64,000 bases of DNA from Nitrospirae bacterium YQR-1 (GTDB lineage Bacteria > Nitrospirota > Thermodesulfovibrionia > Thermodesulfovibrionales > Magnetobacteriaceae). Shown here in pieces: positions 6,943-61,183 of the stretch. Below the pieces are notes generated by a model, which was not told where the DNA came from, did no database searches, and saw only the letters and a list, made by a program, of their open reading frames with translations. A program made the translations under genes and the position numbers. The first letter of the stretch is position 1; every line of letters begins with the position of its first letter. Location of the stretch: contig JAMOBJ010000002.1 of the NCBI GenBank assembly GCA_039908095.1, positions 23,331-87,330 on the forward strand. The letters run 5' to 3'.

Positions 6943-7347
6943 ATGAAAATACTGATAGCTGATGATGACTATTCAAGCCGTACAATGCTGCAGAGCTTTC
7001 TGGAAAACTACGGGGATGTTGACGTTACTATAAACGGCTCCGAAGCTATTGCTGCTTTTCTAAGTGCCATTGAAGCCGGATATCCCTATGGCCTCATTTG
7101 TCTTGATATTATGATGCCGGAGATGGATGGAATCAGCGCTTTAGCACACATTCGCAGCAAAGAAAAGGCGATGGGGATTACACCGGACAAAGAGGTCAAA
7201 ATCATTATGACTACAACCCTTGATGCCCCTTCAGACTTAATTGACGCTTTCTACAAGGGGGTAAACAGGTGTAACGATTATACTACAAAACCTGTTGATT
7301 TACAAAAACTTACTGAAATACTTGAAAAATACGGTTTATCGAGATGA
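6943..7347 (+). CDS. Single-domain CheY-like response regulator
   Basis: MKILIADDD..LDIMMPEMDG..TTKP receiver motifs. AGGAGG 6929-6934 lies 8 nt before the ATG. Confidence 0.85.
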   Translation: MKILIADDDYSSRTMLQSFLENYGDVDVTINGSEAIAAFLSAIEAGYPYGLICLDIMMPEMDGISALAHIRSKEKAMGITPDKEVKIIMTTTLDAPSDLIDAFYKGVNRCNDYTTKPVDLQKLTEILEKYGLSR

Positions 7348-7384: not shown

Positions 7385-9961
7385 TCAGCGGATTTCACCT
7401 TGTGGTTTTAAAAGCAGCGTTGTGATTTCTTTTATAACTTTCTCTGATTCAAATTGTATATTTTCTATAAAATTTAGTATTTTTGCCTCTTCATTCTGAA
7501 AACTACCCTTTAATTCCTTAAGCGCAAGCTCCATTCTAAAAGCCTCACTTCTGAGCCCTGTAGCTCCCACATTTGCAGACATTCCAATAATCAAATGTAT
7601 GTGACTCTTTAATCCTTCCAAATTGCGGGCTTCAAACAACGATTTAAGTAAAGCTATCCGCCCCGGTGCATCCTCTGTGAAGGCTTGCCACATGTCTCTG
7701 AGAACCCTCTCATCATTTTGAACTCTCTGTAGTACCTTTTTTACATTTAGTGACATGCCGGAGGTTCTCTGAGCCGGTTGATGTAAAACGGCGGGCTGTG
7801 ACCTGGAAAGATAATCAGTGCCGGAGTGCTGCCTAATAAATGGTGTTTCAGCAGCTACATGCCTTGAAGCTGTATGCTTGTCAATCATGTTATACAACTC
7901 ATCGGCATCCACCGGTTTTGAAATATAATCAGAAGCTCCCGCCTCAAGACAATGCTCTCTATCTCCTTTTAGCGCATGGGCTGTCATGATAATTACCGGG
8001 ACATCTTTATTTATCTCACACTCTTTTGCACCCCTTATGTGCCGTGTTGCCTCTAAGCCGTCCATAACGGGCATCTGTACGTCCATGATGATGAGATCGA
8101 AGTAGTTCTCAGAGAGCTTATCTATAGCCTCCCGTCCGGTTCCTGCCACATCAGGGAAAATCCCCCGCCTCTGCAGCAACTTCACTGTAAGTGTTTGATT
8201 TACCACATCATCATCAGCGATTAAAACTCTAAGTGCCCTTCTTGACTCAAGCACTCTGTGGCGGTTCAAAAGCAACGCTATGGGGTTATCCCAATTCTCA
8301 GTCAGTATAGAAAGTACTTCCATTAAATCAGACTTGTAAATCGGTTTGACTAAAAACCCTGAAATGCCAAGCTCACGGCACTGTGCCTCATCTACATTTA
8401 AACCTGATGAGATGAGCATAATCACTTTTACCTGTGATAGCCTCTCCATAGACTTCATATTTCTTGAAAAAGCAAATCCGTCCATGTCTGTCAGTTGGAA
8501 ATCTACAATAACTATATTATATTGTACAGTTGACCATGTAAGCATACCGGAGGCCTCATAGCCCCCTGAGGCCGTATCAACGTAAAACCCCTCACCTCTG
8601 AGTATATCGGCCAATCTCCTGCAGGTGGAGGCATTACTATCCACTAATAGTATGCGCTTGCCGGTTACATCAATCTTTTCTGTTGACGAGGCTGAAAGAA
8701 CAGGCCCTGATGATGCTGAAAACCCGGCAGTGAAATGAAAAGTGCTGCCCTTGCCTGGTTTGCTTTCCACCCAAACCTCACCACCAAGCATTGCCACTAT
8801 TTTTTTCACTATTGCAAGCCCAAGCCCCGTGCCCTCATATTTTTTGGTTGCAAACTCCTCAAGCATGGTAAAACTGTCAAAAATTATGCCCAGCTTTTCT
8901 CCTGGAATACCTATCCCTGTATCAGAGACTGAAAAATGTAACAAATACGGCTGGTTCACAAACGGCGGTTCTGTTTTTGTAATATGGTGTGCCATGTCAG
9001 CCTTTAACTCTATTTTACCCTTCTCCGTAAATTTTATTGCGTTGCCGATAAGATTAACCAACACCTGTTTCAACAGGCCTGAGTCTCCTCTTAATGCTGC
9101 CGGTACATTTGGCGAGATTTCAGTGCTAAACATAACCCCCTTGTTTGCAGCCGTAATAATTAAGGGCTCTGTTGTGGTTTTTATTGTACTAATCAAATTA
9201 AAGTCCGCTTCCTTTATCTCCATTTTACCGGCTTCTATTTTAGAAAAATCCAGGATACCGTTTAAGAGATCAAGGAGGTGAGCTGCCGAGTTTTTAACAA
9301 TAGTGAGATACTCTCTCTGCTGCGTATCAACAAGAGTATCCAGTGCAAGGTTAGTCATCCCTATTATACCGTTTAAGGGGGTGCGAAGCTCATGGCTCAT
9401 GTTAGCTAAAAATACACTTTTTGCTTTGTTTGCAGCCTCGGCTGACTCTTTAGCCTTGTGCAGCTCTGCTTCAGTTTGCTTACGTCTGCTTATGTCTCTT
9501 ATAATGCCTGTATAAAAACTATCGCCCTTTGCCTGCCACAGGGCAAGAGATATTTCTACCGGAAATTCCTTGCCGTCTTTCTTTAGCGCTTCCAGCTCAA
9601 AGGTCTTTCCTATCAGGTTTGATTTCCCTGTCTGCGATACTCTCTTTACTCCTTCTTTGTGCTTTTGCCTGAACTTCTCAGGAATTATTATTGTAATATC
9701 ATTACTCACTGCCTCTTGTGCAGAATAACCGAATATATACTCCGCCGCTCTGTTCCAATAGATTATCTCATGGTTGCCGTCTATTGTTATAATCGCATCA
9801 CCGGCGGTGTCCAATACCGATTGCAGCTTTTTCTGATAGATTTCAAGTGATTTGTCGGCATACTGCCGCAATGCTTTCTCTTGTTTTAATTCCTCGTGAG
9901 CTTTACTTAGTCTCTCTATGAGTTCATCGGTGTTCTTATCCGTGGATTTCATCATAGTCAT
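7385..9961 (-). CDS. Hybrid sensor histidine kinase (PAS-HisKA-HATPase-REC-REC-HPt)
   Basis: PAS (IYWNRAAEYIFGY), H-box SHELRTPLNGI, ATPase boxes (DTGIGIP, GTGLGLAI), two receivers (VDFQLTDMDG; MDVQMPVMDG..SKP), and a C-terminal HPt-like HLIIGMSANVGA. Confidence 0.9.
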   Translation of the reverse strand: MTMMKSTDKNTDELIERLSKAHEELKQEKALRQYADKSLEIYQKKLQSVLDTAGDAIITIDGNHEIIYWNRAAEYIFGYSAQEAVSNDITIIIPEKFRQKHKEGVKRVSQTGKSNLIGKTFELEALKKDGKEFPVEISLALWQAKGDSFYTGIIRDISRRKQTEAELHKAKESAEAANKAKSVFLANMSHELRTPLNGIIGMTNLALDTLVDTQQREYLTIVKNSAAHLLDLLNGILDFSKIEAGKMEIKEADFNLISTIKTTTEPLIITAANKGVMFSTEISPNVPAALRGDSGLLKQVLVNLIGNAIKFTEKGKIELKADMAHHITKTEPPFVNQPYLLHFSVSDTGIGIPGEKLGIIFDSFTMLEEFATKKYEGTGLGLAIVKKIVAMLGGEVWVESKPGKGSTFHFTAGFSASSGPVLSASSTEKIDVTGKRILLVDSNASTCRRLADILRGEGFYVDTASGGYEASGMLTWSTVQYNIVIVDFQLTDMDGFAFSRNMKSMERLSQVKVIMLISSGLNVDEAQCRELGISGFLVKPIYKSDLMEVLSILTENWDNPIALLLNRHRVLESRRALRVLIADDDVVNQTLTVKLLQRRGIFPDVAGTGREAIDKLSENYFDLIIMDVQMPVMDGLEATRHIRGAKECEINKDVPVIIMTAHALKGDREHCLEAGASDYISKPVDADELYNMIDKHTASRHVAAETPFIRQHSGTDYLSRSQPAVLHQPAQRTSGMSLNVKKVLQRVQNDERVLRDMWQAFTEDAPGRIALLKSLFEARNLEGLKSHIHLIIGMSANVGATGLRSEAFRMELALKELKGSFQNEEAKILNFIENIQFESEKVIKEITTLLLKPQGEIR

Positions 9962-58430: not shown

Positions 58431-58495
58431 TACGTATGCATGTACCCGTTAAATACAGAGGATTTCTATGATTTCAGTCTTTATTATAAGCACTG

Positions 58496-58523
58496 TTAAG
58501 TTTTTCCAAAATACTACCGATAA
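58496..58523 (+). promoter_or_regulatory. Sigma28 (FliA)-type promoter TTAAGTTT-N12-ACCGATAA upstream of the flagellin locus
   Basis: -35 at 58496-58503 (7/8 to TAAAGTTT), -10 at 58516-58523 (7/8 to GCCGATAA). Same ACCGATAA as the promoter at 32026-32033. Confidence 0.55.
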
Positions 58524-58534
58524 ACTATTAAAAG

Positions 58535-58585
58535 CAGGAAAAAGGAAAGGAAAAAAAGGAAAGAAAGAAGACAAATAGAAGGCAA
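58535..58585 (+). promoter_or_regulatory. Purine tract with four closely spaced GGA motifs at the start of the predicted sigma28 transcript
   Basis: aGGAaaaaGGAaaGGAaaaaaaGGAaagaaagaag. GGA at 58537, 58544, 58549 and 58558. Confidence 0.35.
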
Positions 58586-58693
58586 TAAGTGTTAACAGTG
58601 TTTAGGTATTGTAAGGATACAGTACCGTAAAGCTCACTGGGCACGACAATAAAAAAGTAGTAAGTTAAATATTTGTTTTTAGGTTTAAAACGG

Positions 58694-58706
58694 CAGCCGG
58701 ATGCTG
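58694..58706 (+). promoter_or_regulatory. Leader hairpin CAGC-cGGAt-GCTG (candidate CsrA site), copy 1
   Basis: Stem extendable to GGCAGC/GCTGTC. 44 nt before ATG 58738, which is preceded by AAGGAGG. Confidence 0.45.
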
Positions 58707-58737
58707 TCAGAATTGGTGAAATTACAAGGAGGTTGAC

Positions 58738-58800
58738 ATGACTTTAATAACTGCAGCAACAATAATAATTCTCCATCACAAACTTATCAACGATACATAA
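58738..58800 (+). pseudogene. 20-codon ORF MTLITAATIIILHHKLINDT, apparently a decayed flagellin 5' end
   Basis: It has the same hairpin-SD-ATG leader layout as both flagellins. The nucleotide string ATGAC-TTTAATAAC..GCAACAATAATAATTCTCCATCACA resembles ATGGCATTTGTAATAAAC..ACAAACATAATGTCCCTCAATTCACA. Confidence 0.35.
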
Positions 58801-58891
58801 CCGCTGTCAGCTTAATTTATTTAAGATTATAAATTAAGTATATAGACGGTGTTGTATCAGAACCGTTAAGTGCAATTACTATTAAAACTAG

Positions 58892-58904
58892 TAGCCGGAT
58901 GCTA
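58892..58904 (+). promoter_or_regulatory. Leader hairpin TAGC-cGGAt-GCTA (candidate CsrA site), copy 2
   Basis: Stem extendable to 8 bp (CTAGTAGC/GCTATTAG). 43 nt before ATG 58935. SD GGAGG at 58924-58928. Confidence 0.45.
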
Positions 58905-58934
58905 TTAGACTAAAACGACACATGGAGGTTTATC

Positions 58935-59945
58935 ATGGCATTTGTAATAAACACAAACATAATGTCCCTCAATTCACAGCGTAACTTAAGAAGAACCCAG
59001 ACTCCGCTTGCTGATGCAATGGCAAGATTATCATCAGGATACAGGATAAACTCAGCAAAGGATGACGCAGCAGGGCTTGCAATATCGACAAGAATGACCA
59101 CTCAGATAAGAGGTCTGACTGTGTCGGTAAGAAATGCCAACGACGGTATGTCAATGGTGCAGACTGCTGAGGGCGCAATGGATGAAATCACCCAGAACCT
59201 TCAGAGAATTCGTGAACTTGGCGTGCAGGCAATGAGCGGGCAGTACGGAGTAACCGATATATCGTACATGCAAAAGGAAGTAAATGCCCTTATTGAGGAG
59301 ATAGGGAGAATTTCAGAGCAAACTAAATTTAATGACAAAAGGCTGCTTGCCGGGGGCTTTGATCAACGGCTCCATACAAGCTATGCCGCCAGTGACGCCC
59401 AGATAAGGGTTACAATCGGTTCTATGAACACGGATGCCCTGGGTGGCCCGATTTTTACGCCTACCGGTAAAAATGGTACAACCGTATTCTTAAAAGATAT
59501 CCATACTGCTACAACGAGCGGAATAGACGGCATAGGGGATGGCTCATTTGTAAGTGGTGCAGGGTATCCGCCTAACTGGAGTTTTGAAGCTAAATCCACA
59601 ATCACTTTTACCGGAACAACGGCTTTTCAGGTGGCGGATTCAACCAGTGTGACAGGGTTTAGGTCCCAAGCGTCAAATGCTATCGCTGCAGTTGATGCGG
59701 CATTGAATTATGTTACAAGCTCAAAAGCCAGCATGGGTGCAAGAGCAAACCAGTTTGAAGCGTCTATAAGAAACATAGACAACGTAATAGAGACAACTCA
59801 GGGGTCGAAGTCCAGAATTATTGACGCCGACTTTGCTAATGAAACAGCAAACCTTACTAAGTCTATGATTCTACAACAGTCCGGCATATCGGTTTTGGCT
59901 CAGGCCAACTCGGCTCCGCAAAATGTGCTCTCACTGTTGAGATAG
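58935..59945 (+). CDS. Flagellin (336 aa)
   Basis: MAFVINTNIMSLNSQRNL..RLSSGYRINSAKDDAAGLAI.. N-terminus and ..ILQQSGISVLAQANSAPQNVLSLLR C-terminus. Confidence 0.95.
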   Translation: MAFVINTNIMSLNSQRNLRRTQTPLADAMARLSSGYRINSAKDDAAGLAISTRMTTQIRGLTVSVRNANDGMSMVQTAEGAMDEITQNLQRIRELGVQAMSGQYGVTDISYMQKEVNALIEEIGRISEQTKFNDKRLLAGGFDQRLHTSYAASDAQIRVTIGSMNTDALGGPIFTPTGKNGTTVFLKDIHTATTSGIDGIGDGSFVSGAGYPPNWSFEAKSTITFTGTTAFQVADSTSVTGFRSQASNAIAAVDAALNYVTSSKASMGARANQFEASIRNIDNVIETTQGSKSRIIDADFANETANLTKSMILQQSGISVLAQANSAPQNVLSLLR

Positions 59946-60084
59946 AAAAATACTGATAAAGCAGGAGGATAACAGAATTGGGTTGTAATCCCAATAAGTT
60001 GAATTATTGAAATATTTGGAGGTGTATGAGATGTAGAATTAGTGTTTATAGTATTAGGACATATTGACTTGTAGATTAACCGAA

Positions 60085-60097
60085 TAGCTGGATGCTA
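60085..60097 (+). promoter_or_regulatory. Leader hairpin TAGC-tGGAt-GCTA (candidate CsrA site), copy 3
   Basis: Stem extendable to 7 bp. 40 nt before ATG 60125. SD GGAGG at 60114-60118. Confidence 0.45.
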
Positions 60098-60124
60098 TTT
60101 AAAAAAGACGCAAGGAGGTTTACC

Positions 60125-61135
60125 ATGGCATTTGTAATAAATACAAACATAATGTCTCTTAATTCTCAACGTAATTTGAGAAGAACACAAACTCCGTTGC
60201 AGGATGCAATGGCAAGATTATCATCAGGATACAGGATAAACTCAGCAAAGGATGATGCAGCAGGGCTTGCAATAGCAACAAGAATGACTTCACAGGTCAG
60301 AGGCTTGACCGTGTCGGTAAGAAACGCCAACGATGGTATGTCAATGGTGCAGACTGCCGAGGGTGCAATGGATGAAATCACTCAAAACCTACAGCGAATT
60401 CGTGAGCTTGGCGTGCAGGCAATGAGCGGGCAGTATGGCGTAACCGATATATCGTACATGCAAAAGGAAGTAAATTCACTTGTAGAGGAAATAGGGAGAA
60501 TATCGGAGCAGACCAAGTTCAATGACAAGAGGCTGCTTGCCGGTGCTTTTGATCAACGAATCCATACAAGCTATGCAGCCAGTGACGCCCAGATAAGGGT
60601 TGCAGTCGGCTCAATGAACACAGATGCCCTGGGTGGCCCGATATTTACTCCAACCGGTAAAAATGGAGCAATCGTTTACTTAAAAGATATTCACACCGCT
60701 ACCACAAGCGGAGTAAATGGTATAGGGGATGCCAGCTTTGTAAGCGGTGCAGGATATCCGCCTAACTGGAGTTTTGAGGCTAAAAGCAGTATTACCTATA
60801 CCGGTATAGCATCGTTTCAGGTAGCAGATTCAACCAGCGTTACCGGATTCAGATCGCAAGCCTCAAATGCTATTGCTGCGATTGATGCAGCTTTAAATTT
60901 TGTAACCAGTTCAAAATCAGACATGGGAGCTAAGGCTAACCAGTTTGAAGCATCTATCAGAAACATAGACAACGTAATAGAGACAACTCAGGGGTCAAAG
61001 TCCAGAATTATGGATGCCGACTTTGCCTCCGAAACAGCAAACCTTACTAAGTCTATGATTCTACAACAGTCCGGCATTTCGGTTTTGGCTCAGGCCAATT
61101 CGGCCCCGCAAAACGTACTTGCCCTGTTGAGATAA
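60125..61135 (+). CDS. Flagellin paralog (336 aa)
   Basis: Same length as the first copy and roughly 90% identical by eye. ATG 60125 follows AAGGAGG. The track ORF starts 33 nt earlier. Confidence 0.95.
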   Translation: MAFVINTNIMSLNSQRNLRRTQTPLQDAMARLSSGYRINSAKDDAAGLAIATRMTSQVRGLTVSVRNANDGMSMVQTAEGAMDEITQNLQRIRELGVQAMSGQYGVTDISYMQKEVNSLVEEIGRISEQTKFNDKRLLAGAFDQRIHTSYAASDAQIRVAVGSMNTDALGGPIFTPTGKNGAIVYLKDIHTATTSGVNGIGDASFVSGAGYPPNWSFEAKSSITYTGIASFQVADSTSVTGFRSQASNAIAAIDAALNFVTSSKSDMGAKANQFEASIRNIDNVIETTQGSKSRIMDADFASETANLTKSMILQQSGISVLAQANSAPQNVLALLR

Positions 61136-61150
61136 AATTTCGTATACTCC

Positions 61151-61183
61151 GGGGAGGAAGGGTGCTTCCTCCCCCTTTTTTTT
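61151..61183 (+). terminator. Rho-independent terminator after the second flagellin
   Basis: GGGGAGGAAG-ggtg-CTTCCTCCCC followed by a T8 run. Confidence 0.85.

Follow-up and report, generated by a model that had tools for sequence, protein, structure and literature searches.

What is the function of three closely similar hairpins, each presenting a GGA motif in its loop shortly upstream of a start codon, in the flagellin locus of Nitrospirae bacterium YQR-1? The locus lies in a stretch of 64,000 nucleotides (nt) of contig JAMOBJ010000002.1, referred to below as the window, and comprises two tandem flagellin genes on the plus strand, flagellin A (58935-59945) and flagellin B (60125-61135), each encoding 336 amino acids (aa). 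The pair is flanked by two tRNA genes on one side and by a cobD/cbiB gene on the other. Flagellin A was identified by the Pfam domains Flagellin_N (8.9e-43) and Flagellin_C (2.9e-22), and flagellin B matches the same two families. A first-pass annotation had interpreted the hairpins as sites by which CsrA, antagonized by FliW, controls the translation of flagellin. Our analysis indicates that the hairpin observation is real and much stronger than the window alone could show, and, as far as can be judged from sequences, that the interpretation in terms of CsrA is the most likely one.

All three hairpins were found at the positions claimed, on the plus strand like all other features described here for the window. 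Hairpin 1, GGCAGC-CGGAU-GCUGUC, a putative CsrA site, is located at 58692-58708; hairpin 2, CUAGUAGC-CGGAU-GCUAUUAG, the putative CsrA site of flagellin A, at 58888-58908; and hairpin 3, GAAUAGC-UGGAU-GCUAUUU, the putative CsrA site of flagellin B, at 60082-60100. Each of them contains one G-U pair. They are followed by the Shine-Dalgarno (SD) sequences SD 1 (ACAAGGAGG, 58724-58732, with GGAGG at 58728-58732), SD 2 (ACAUGGAGG, 58920-58928, with GGAGG at 58924-58928) and SD 3 (GCAAGGAGG, 60110-60118, with GGAGG at 60114-60118), all of which lie in a context that resembles the CsrA consensus. The distance between the GGA in the loop and the GGA in the SD sequence amounts to 29, 27 and 24 nt for copies 1, 2 and 3, respectively. 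Measured from the start of the hairpin, the ATG follows after 46, 47 and 43 nt, which is slightly longer than the 40-44 nt originally given. Likewise, the placement upstream of flagellin genes holds for copies 2 and 3, which precede the two genes with Pfam support, whereas hairpin 1 and SD 1 serve a short open reading frame (ORF) of 20 codons (MTLITAATIIILHHKLINDT, 58738-58800). The true start of flagellin B is the ATG at 60125 and not the ATG at 60092 within hairpin 3, since the resulting N-terminus is identical to that of flagellin A and the SD sequence fits this ATG.

The core sequence AGCNGGANGCU occurs three times in the 64 kb of the window compared with 0.33 expected occurrences, and none of 100 shuffled sequences contained three copies. 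Hairpins with a generic NGGAN pentaloop are not rare (20 observed versus 12.7 +/- 3.7 expected), so that the signal is carried by the specific core and its position. Moreover, the three copies are paralogous; their mutual likeness alone is therefore little proof, and the question could not be settled with the window alone. The fold energies of the hairpins in short windows were no better than those of shuffled sequences, as is to be expected for stems of 6-8 base pairs (bp). The entire first leader (58531-58945) folds much better than its shuffled counterparts (z = -3.5), and hairpin 1 is present in both its minimum free energy (MFE) and its centroid structure. An alternative pairing of the 3′-arm of the hairpin with the start codon region was considered and discarded, as it appeared in the MFE structure of copy 2 only and, inspected by eye, was not kept in relatives. 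Searching the window with Rfam 15 at the gathering score returned the two tRNAs only and no flagellin leader family, and over positions 58450-60200 no match was obtained up to E = 1. The leader sequence is reproduced exactly and at high depth in the sediment metagenome run X1, the single public run found to contain the window and probably the sample from which it derives.

The decisive support for the predicted hairpin is its conservation with covariation in other genomes. The closest flagellin loci, encoding proteins with 62-73% identity, all belong to magnetotactic Nitrospirota or to related Nitrospirae/Nitrospirota metagenome-assembled genomes (MAGs), among them Candidatus (Ca.) Magnetobacterium casense MYR-1, Ca. 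M. cryptolimnobacter and Ca. Magnetominusculus xianensis HCH-1; the flagellin of Ca. Magnetocorallium comes next with 55-56% identity over its full length. In these related loci the same hairpin precedes another 15 flagellin starts and another two short ORFs. We aligned 21 hairpins of the form AGC-NGGAN-GCU, 18 belonging to flagellins and three to short ORFs, from the window and 13 related loci, which are designated by L numbers where necessary; 18 of the 21 lie outside the window. The GGA in the loop is invariant in 21 of 21 copies, as are the two closing pairs, and the other two positions of the loop vary. The stem occurs in variants such as AUAGC/GCUAU, ACAGC/GCUGU and AUGGC/GCCAU; five of the eight stem pairs change on both sides, and 86.8% of the cells in the alignment are paired. 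The covariation score was reached by none of 500 shuffles, and slid registers were paired to only 24-57%. This covariation bears out the earlier claim that structure rather than sequence has been conserved by means of compensatory changes. Across the 21 copies the hairpin is located 24-37 nt before the SD sequence (GGA to GGA). A lack of the hairpins upstream of the flagellins of related genomes had been named as an outcome that would speak against their proposed role; they are clearly kept there. The G-U pairs in all three copies of the window, together with the compensatory changes, argue for an RNA element rather than a palindrome in the DNA.

In line with these results, a covariance model (R1) spanning the region from the hairpin to the ATG, which we used to search 444 kb consisting of the window and the related loci, scored above 50 bits exclusively in these flagellin and short-ORF leaders (59.2 bits for hairpin 2 and 53.1 bits for hairpin 3); the next match, the flagellin leader of a more distant relative, reached 25 bits. 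Hairpin 1 is identical in the related locus L012 (7036-7052), and its equivalent in the Ca. Magnetocorallium locus L013 reads GAUAGC-AGGAA-GCUAUC. The leaders of the window and L012 are 84% identical, with nearly invariant hairpin and SD blocks.

The second GGA overlaps the SD sequence. The spacing between the two GGA motifs amounts to 24-29 nt in the window and, in relatives, to 24-37 nt, which is within the range that a CsrA dimer can bridge; the source for this range is reportedly the work of Mercante from 2009, cited in PMC7652899. The context CA-N-GGAGGU of the SD sequence is invariant in 21 of 21 copies and reads UUACA-N-GGAGGUAA in most relatives. There, the SD sequence forms a hairpin of 3-6 bp with an A-N-G-G-A-G hexaloop closed by AC/GU, which is reduced to two pairs in the window and L012. 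The consensus that was obtained for CsrA by SELEX is RUACARGGAUGU, with a hairpin carrying GGA in a hexaloop as the preferred form (PMC7652899). The site UUACA-N-GGAGGU nearly equals this consensus, and its ANGGAG hexaloop corresponds to the preferred form of the ligand (PMC7652899).

A sigma-28-type promoter of the flagellin transcript, TAAG-N15-ACCGATAA, is predicted by a consensus scan at 58497-58523. The near-consensus element TAAAGTTT-N11-NCCGATAA is present in 16 related leaders, 160-440 nt upstream of the flagellin starts: 160-220 nt upstream of single flagellin genes in relatives; in the window, L012 and L013, in which the module comprising the short ORF intervenes, the interval is 390-440 nt. 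For the second and third tandem genes in the window and L012, the consensus scan did not reveal a sigma-28 promoter of their own. Neither a terminator nor a sigma-28 promoter was found between flagellins A and B, and flagellin B is followed by a strong intrinsic terminator (61151-61183) consisting of a 10-bp G+C-rich stem and a T-run. Furthermore, fliA is present in the fliL-to-fliA cluster adjoining the flagellins of a Ca. Magnetominusculus relative. The hairpin element is thus predicted to reside on the transcript of a late flagellin promoter of the sigma-28 type.

More distant loci were found by a search with FliD, the protein that follows flagellin in most relatives, and the encoding contigs were read. 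Two of them, L142 and L144, contain FliT-containing clusters, look proteobacterial and were set aside. In the remaining three the flagellin SD sequence is likewise preceded by a hairpin: CCGGGC-AUGGAA-GCCCGG before UUACACGGAGGU in L141, UGGUA-AGGA-UACCA before AUCAAGGAGGA in L143, and GGGC-AAGGAU-GCCC before CUCAUGGAGGA in L145, in each case 15-28 nt upstream of a CA-N-GGAGG SD sequence. Sigma-28-type promoters were recognized by eye in all three loci. These hairpins at the same place indicate that the position and the GGA in the loop have been kept, while the sequence of the stem has been replaced entirely. In L145, a metagenome contig whose FliD shares 34% identity with its counterpart in Ca. 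Magnetobacterium casense MYR-1, the gene order is flgM-flgN-flgK-flgL-csrA-fliW-fliC-flaG-fliD-fliS, with csrA-fliW directly upstream of flagellin. Its CsrA (79 aa) and FliW (140 aa) were recovered at 1.3e-26 and 4.2e-58, respectively, by hidden Markov models (HMMs) built from 240 CsrA and 137 FliW sequences, the latter set including the FliW of L145. In one related lineage, the layout of hairpin and SD sequence hence co-occurs with the regulator pair.

Taken together, these data make it probable that the flagellin mRNA carries a translational operator for CsrA that consists of two sites, the upstream one being the hairpin. According to this model, one long transcript would start at the promoter at 58497-58523, comprise the leader, the short ORF, flagellin A, the spacer and flagellin B, and end at the terminator at 61151. 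On this transcript each of the three start codons would be preceded by a hairpin of 6-8 bp with GGA in a pentaloop, which G-C and C-G pairs close, followed by the GGA of the SD sequence. One CsrA dimer would bridge the two GGA motifs and block the binding of the 30S subunit. FliW, set free once flagellin leaves the cell through the finished hook-basal body, would bind CsrA and lift the block, whereby translation of flagellin would track the capacity for secretion. As the tandem genes share one transcript, an operator would be needed for each cistron, and each cistron has one. The trans-acting partner is likely still present, since the GGA does not vary although the stem drifts, and since the SD context fits the CsrA consensus. 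The earlier assignment to CsrA and FliW has accordingly gained partial support: every prediction tested on the side of the RNA, that is, conservation, position in the leader and the match of the SD sequence to the consensus, held.

Several observations weigh against this interpretation. The upstream loop is a pentaloop, GC-NGGAN-GC, closed by C-G and lacking the conserved A of the ANGGAN hexaloop; it is nearer to the CsrB repeat CAGGA(U/A/C)G if the second letter of the latter is taken as variable. The number of additional GGA motifs in the leaders does not exceed that expected from the purine-rich composition (96 versus 94.6), and we dismissed the idea that the GGA-rich leader serves as a CsrA sponge. 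No RNA run was found among the public runs containing the stretch. Moreover, of 26 complete or N-terminal flagellin starts in related MAG loci, eight have no hairpin (L002 6217, L008a 10001, L009a 338, L010 4911, L011a 10001, L013a 10001, L014b 10966 and L071 10001), which suggests that the control is specific to certain paralogues or dispensable. Some of these paralogues keep a degenerate AGCGGCA remnant, and most still have a sigma-28-type promoter. Finally, the HMMs matched CsrA and FliW in L145 only and detected neither protein in the 64 kb of the window or in 144 other loci. The sequences searched include 10 kb to either side of each related flagellin locus and 30 kb of a relative's flagellar cluster. 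Searches with tblastn and phmmer over the window and the loci returned nothing beyond L145, which served as the positive control.

Consistently, neither csrA nor fliW is part of the cluster fliL-fliM-fliN-fliOPQR-flhB-flhA-flhF-flhG-fliA-cheR... of the Ca. Magnetominusculus relative. The 10 kb upstream of flagellin in a Ca. M. casense-like MAG, whose flagellin is identical to that of MYR-1, hold a methyltransferase, a GT2 gene and two genes without Pfam match, and no csrA; nor was csrA found nearby in L141 and L143. A protein search with Bacillus subtilis CsrA yielded matches in Bacillaceae only, and a search with a consensus CsrA yielded 120 matches, most of them without a name and none labelled Nitrospirota. 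Scanning metagenomes with the flagellin did not reveal a close relative, the best match being 40% identical. In the literature we found no paper linking csrA or fliW with Magnetobacterium or Thermodesulfovibrio, and neither gene is mentioned in the paper on Ca. Magnetocorallium or in its supplements. The flagellin genes of these magnetotactic Nitrospirota are clearly separated from the flgKL-csrA-fliW block, and the presence of csrA and fliW in this genome is assumed here by analogy with their distribution in other flagellated bacteria outside the gammaproteobacteria.

The lack of both genes in the examined sequence of these relatives is also an argument for a cis-acting RNA element that functions independently of CsrA, either as a determinant of stability or processing or as the operator of another flagellar RNA-binding protein. 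If the polycistronic flagellin transcript is cut endonucleolytically, for instance, the hairpin could serve as a protective 5′ stem-loop of each cistron, and processing is plausible for tandem genes without promoters of their own. The departure of the loop from the canonical ANGGAN and the presence of further conserved hairpins and SD-like boxes in the leaders, which CsrA does not explain, point in the same direction. Nevertheless, we regard this alternative, the main rival of the CsrA model, as unlikely, if worth keeping in mind. A purely structural role does not require that all 21 copies retain the GGA despite drift in the stem and in the remaining loop letters, the coupling to an SD sequence with CsrA consensus at bridging distance would be left unexplained, and the same layout stands beside csrA-fliW in L145. 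With regard to another regulator, a search of all loci examined for signatures of FlbT, conducted at the level of motifs, returned nothing. Should csrA and fliW truly be absent, the hairpin with its invariant GGA would be the operator of a novel flagellar RNA-binding protein.

Two further explanations dispense with a regulatory RNA. Each flagellin start has a near-palindrome at a fixed distance, which could in principle be the DNA operator of a dimeric transcription factor. We consider this very improbable, as the repeats are located 130-400 nt downstream of the predicted sigma-28 promoters, the copies before the second and third genes of the operon have no promoter to control, and pairing is kept through G-U (G-T in DNA) and compensatory changes with the bases not fixed, which is the signature of an RNA. 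Alternatively, the hairpins might have no function of their own and merely result from the duplication of flagellin genes along with their leaders, the first copy being a decayed flagellin start. The copies are indeed clearly paralogous, the peptide encoded by the short ORF is not conserved, and its changes between the window and L012 affect mostly codon position 2. Conservation with covariation across loci with 55-73% identical flagellins cannot, however, be due to hitch-hiking, three genomes, one of which has a 56% identical flagellin, retain the hairpin-SD-ATG arrangement of the short ORF, and the short ORF bears no significant resemblance to flagellin 5′ coding sequence, so that we give hardly any credence to this explanation.

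The proposed control by CsrA would place the locus among systems studied elsewhere. CsrA/FliW-dependent control of flagellin is established in Bacillus, Campylobacter, Clostridioides, Borrelia and Helicobacter, and an interaction between FliW and CsrA has been reported in Geobacter (PMC6529632, PMC4894983, PMC8523840, PMC12327847, PMC11905337, PMC13407953). For B. subtilis, the hag leader and the Hag-FliW-CsrA partner switch have been described (Yakhnin 2007; Mukherjee 2011; PMC6529632; reviewed in PMC7652899). As in hag, the flagellin mRNA studied here would be transcribed from a sigma-D/sigma-28 promoter, which is predicted in our case, and carries two putative CsrA sites, one located upstream and one overlapping the SD sequence; repression by blocking the ribosome, dedicated to flagellin, would likewise be shared. 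In contrast to hag, the leaders are far longer, measuring 130-410 nt, the upstream pentaloop is closed by C-G, one operator is present for each tandem cistron in addition to an extra one for the short ORF, and csrA and fliW do not adjoin the flagellin genes. The Campylobacter jejuni flaA mRNA likewise contains two stem-loops with GGA in the loop, SL1 and SL2, the second of which covers the ribosome-binding site (Dugar 2016, PMC4894983), and its structure is backed by compensatory changes in relatives (PMC4894983). Regulation of flaA operates through FliW and not through small RNAs (PMC4894983), and by analogy we propose the same route here. In contrast to the leaders described here, the sigma-28-driven flaA 5′ untranslated region is only 45 nt in length and has no further elements (PMC4894983); moreover, the equivalent of SL2 is weak in the window (2 bp) and comprises 4-7 bp in relatives.

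If correct, our interpretation would extend the CsrA-FliW flagellin checkpoint, which has so far been shown experimentally in Firmicutes, Campylobacterota and spirochaetes, to deep-branching magnetotactic Nitrospirota that cannot be grown in pure culture, and would back the view of flagellin homeostasis as the ancestral task of CsrA. The operator is clean, supported by covariation and present once per cistron of a tandem operon. The gain would be incremental, as the mechanism itself is textbook knowledge and the locus is probably a new example of a known feedback switch for flagellin.

Also conserved is the module between the sigma-28 promoter and the first flagellin gene. The arrangement of hairpin, SD sequence, ATG and short ORF is kept in the window (58692-58800), in L012 (7036-7144) and in L013 (15325-15455). 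The ORF comprises 20 codons in the window, 20 in L012 with the same ends, and 26 in L013, and all three versions start with ATGACU. The versions of the window and L012 agree at 50 of 63 nt; length and position are retained, the peptide is not. When the short ORF was aligned as a decayed flagellin 5′-end, 47, 278 and 307 of 500 shuffles equalled the result, and we rejected this origin. Rather than a protein-coding gene or a simple relic, the short ORF thus seems to be a translated unit of the leader that has been retained.

Additional units with SD-like sequences are found in the spacers of tandem flagellins, in the window at 60018-60036 and in L012 at 8501-8519 and 9900-9918. They consist of GGAGGU, 7 nt and a start codon that directly adjoins a stop codon, ATG-TAG in the window and GTG-TAG and ATG-TAA in L012. 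This conserved mini-ORF is located approximately 95 nt upstream of the hairpin. An SD-like GGAGGUG box that is not followed by an ORF is located in the 5′ part of many leaders, approximately 85-140 nt upstream of the real SD sequence (L014 ~9880, L018 ~9870, L071 ~9855, L141 ~8703, L143 ~6462 and L145 ~7910). STAB-SD sequences are SD-like elements at the 5′-end that stabilize an mRNA, for example in Bacillus thuringiensis cryIIIA, and start-stop sites have been seen in E. coli by ribosome profiling. In common with such elements, the leaders described here have a strong GGAGGU(G) box, approximately 90-110 nt upstream of the real SD sequence, and the units of the window and L012 share with start-stop sites the succession of box, 7 nt, start codon and immediate stop. 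The GGAGGUG box and the start-stop units may thus be elements that load ribosomes by binding the 30S subunit or that stabilize the mRNA.

These features permit a tentative extension of the CsrA model, which we deem rather doubtful at present, namely a composite leader in which an upstream ribosome-loading unit precedes each CsrA-type operator and the short ORF acts as a translated decoy or sensor. The unit may take the form of hairpin, SD sequence and short ORF in three genomes, of an SD sequence with a start-stop mini-ORF in tandem spacers, and, in other lineages, of a GGAGGUG box on its own. Equipped with a complete operator copy, the short ORF would then set mRNA stability or the supply of ribosomes for the downstream flagellin cistrons, under the same regulator.

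Besides the three putative CsrA sites, the leader and the spacer contain further hairpins. The MFE and centroid folds of the whole leader show a hairpin with GGA in a tetraloop, GGUAUUGUA-AGGA-UACAGUACC, at 58605-58626, the 19-nt core of which, ATATTGTAAGGATACAGTA, is identical in the window and L012 (~6965-6987); the main hairpin preceding the SD sequence in L143, UGGUA-AGGA-UACCA, resembles it. Both folds also contain an A/U-rich hairpin without U-tract between the short ORF and hairpin 2 (58811-58838), which is kept in L012 with a longer stem. Directly 3′ of the flagellin A stop codon, a hairpin of the form AUUGGG...CCCAAU, likewise without U-tract, is located at 59977-59995 and is kept in both spacers of L012. 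The hairpins at 58811-58838 and 59977-59995 could be processing or pausing sites. Within codons 24-29 of flagellin B we observed a 7-bp hairpin with an AGGAU loop, CCGUUGC-AGGAU-GCAAUGG (60194-60212); at the matching site flagellin A reads GCUGAU, without GGA.

Further observations concern the surroundings of the related flagellin genes. In most relatives a gene pair encoding proteins of 187 aa and approximately 390 aa is located directly upstream of flagellin (L004 7986-9738, L001, L007, L008 and L071), and this pair is absent from the flagellin locus of the window. Both L004 proteins are without Pfam match, and the pair may be part of flagellin modification. Five tandem, near-identical DUF29 genes (154-159 aa) at 17600-20407 of L004 (equal to L140) lie downstream of the flagellin-motAB block in the Ca. 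M. casense MYR-1 locus and in a near-identical MAG copy. In L141 (11908-12114) and L143 (9796-9996), an ORF of 66-68 aa without Pfam match directly follows fliS; it contains the motif VVSISAEAK, which presumably reflects a resemblance to the anti-sigma-28 factor FlgM.

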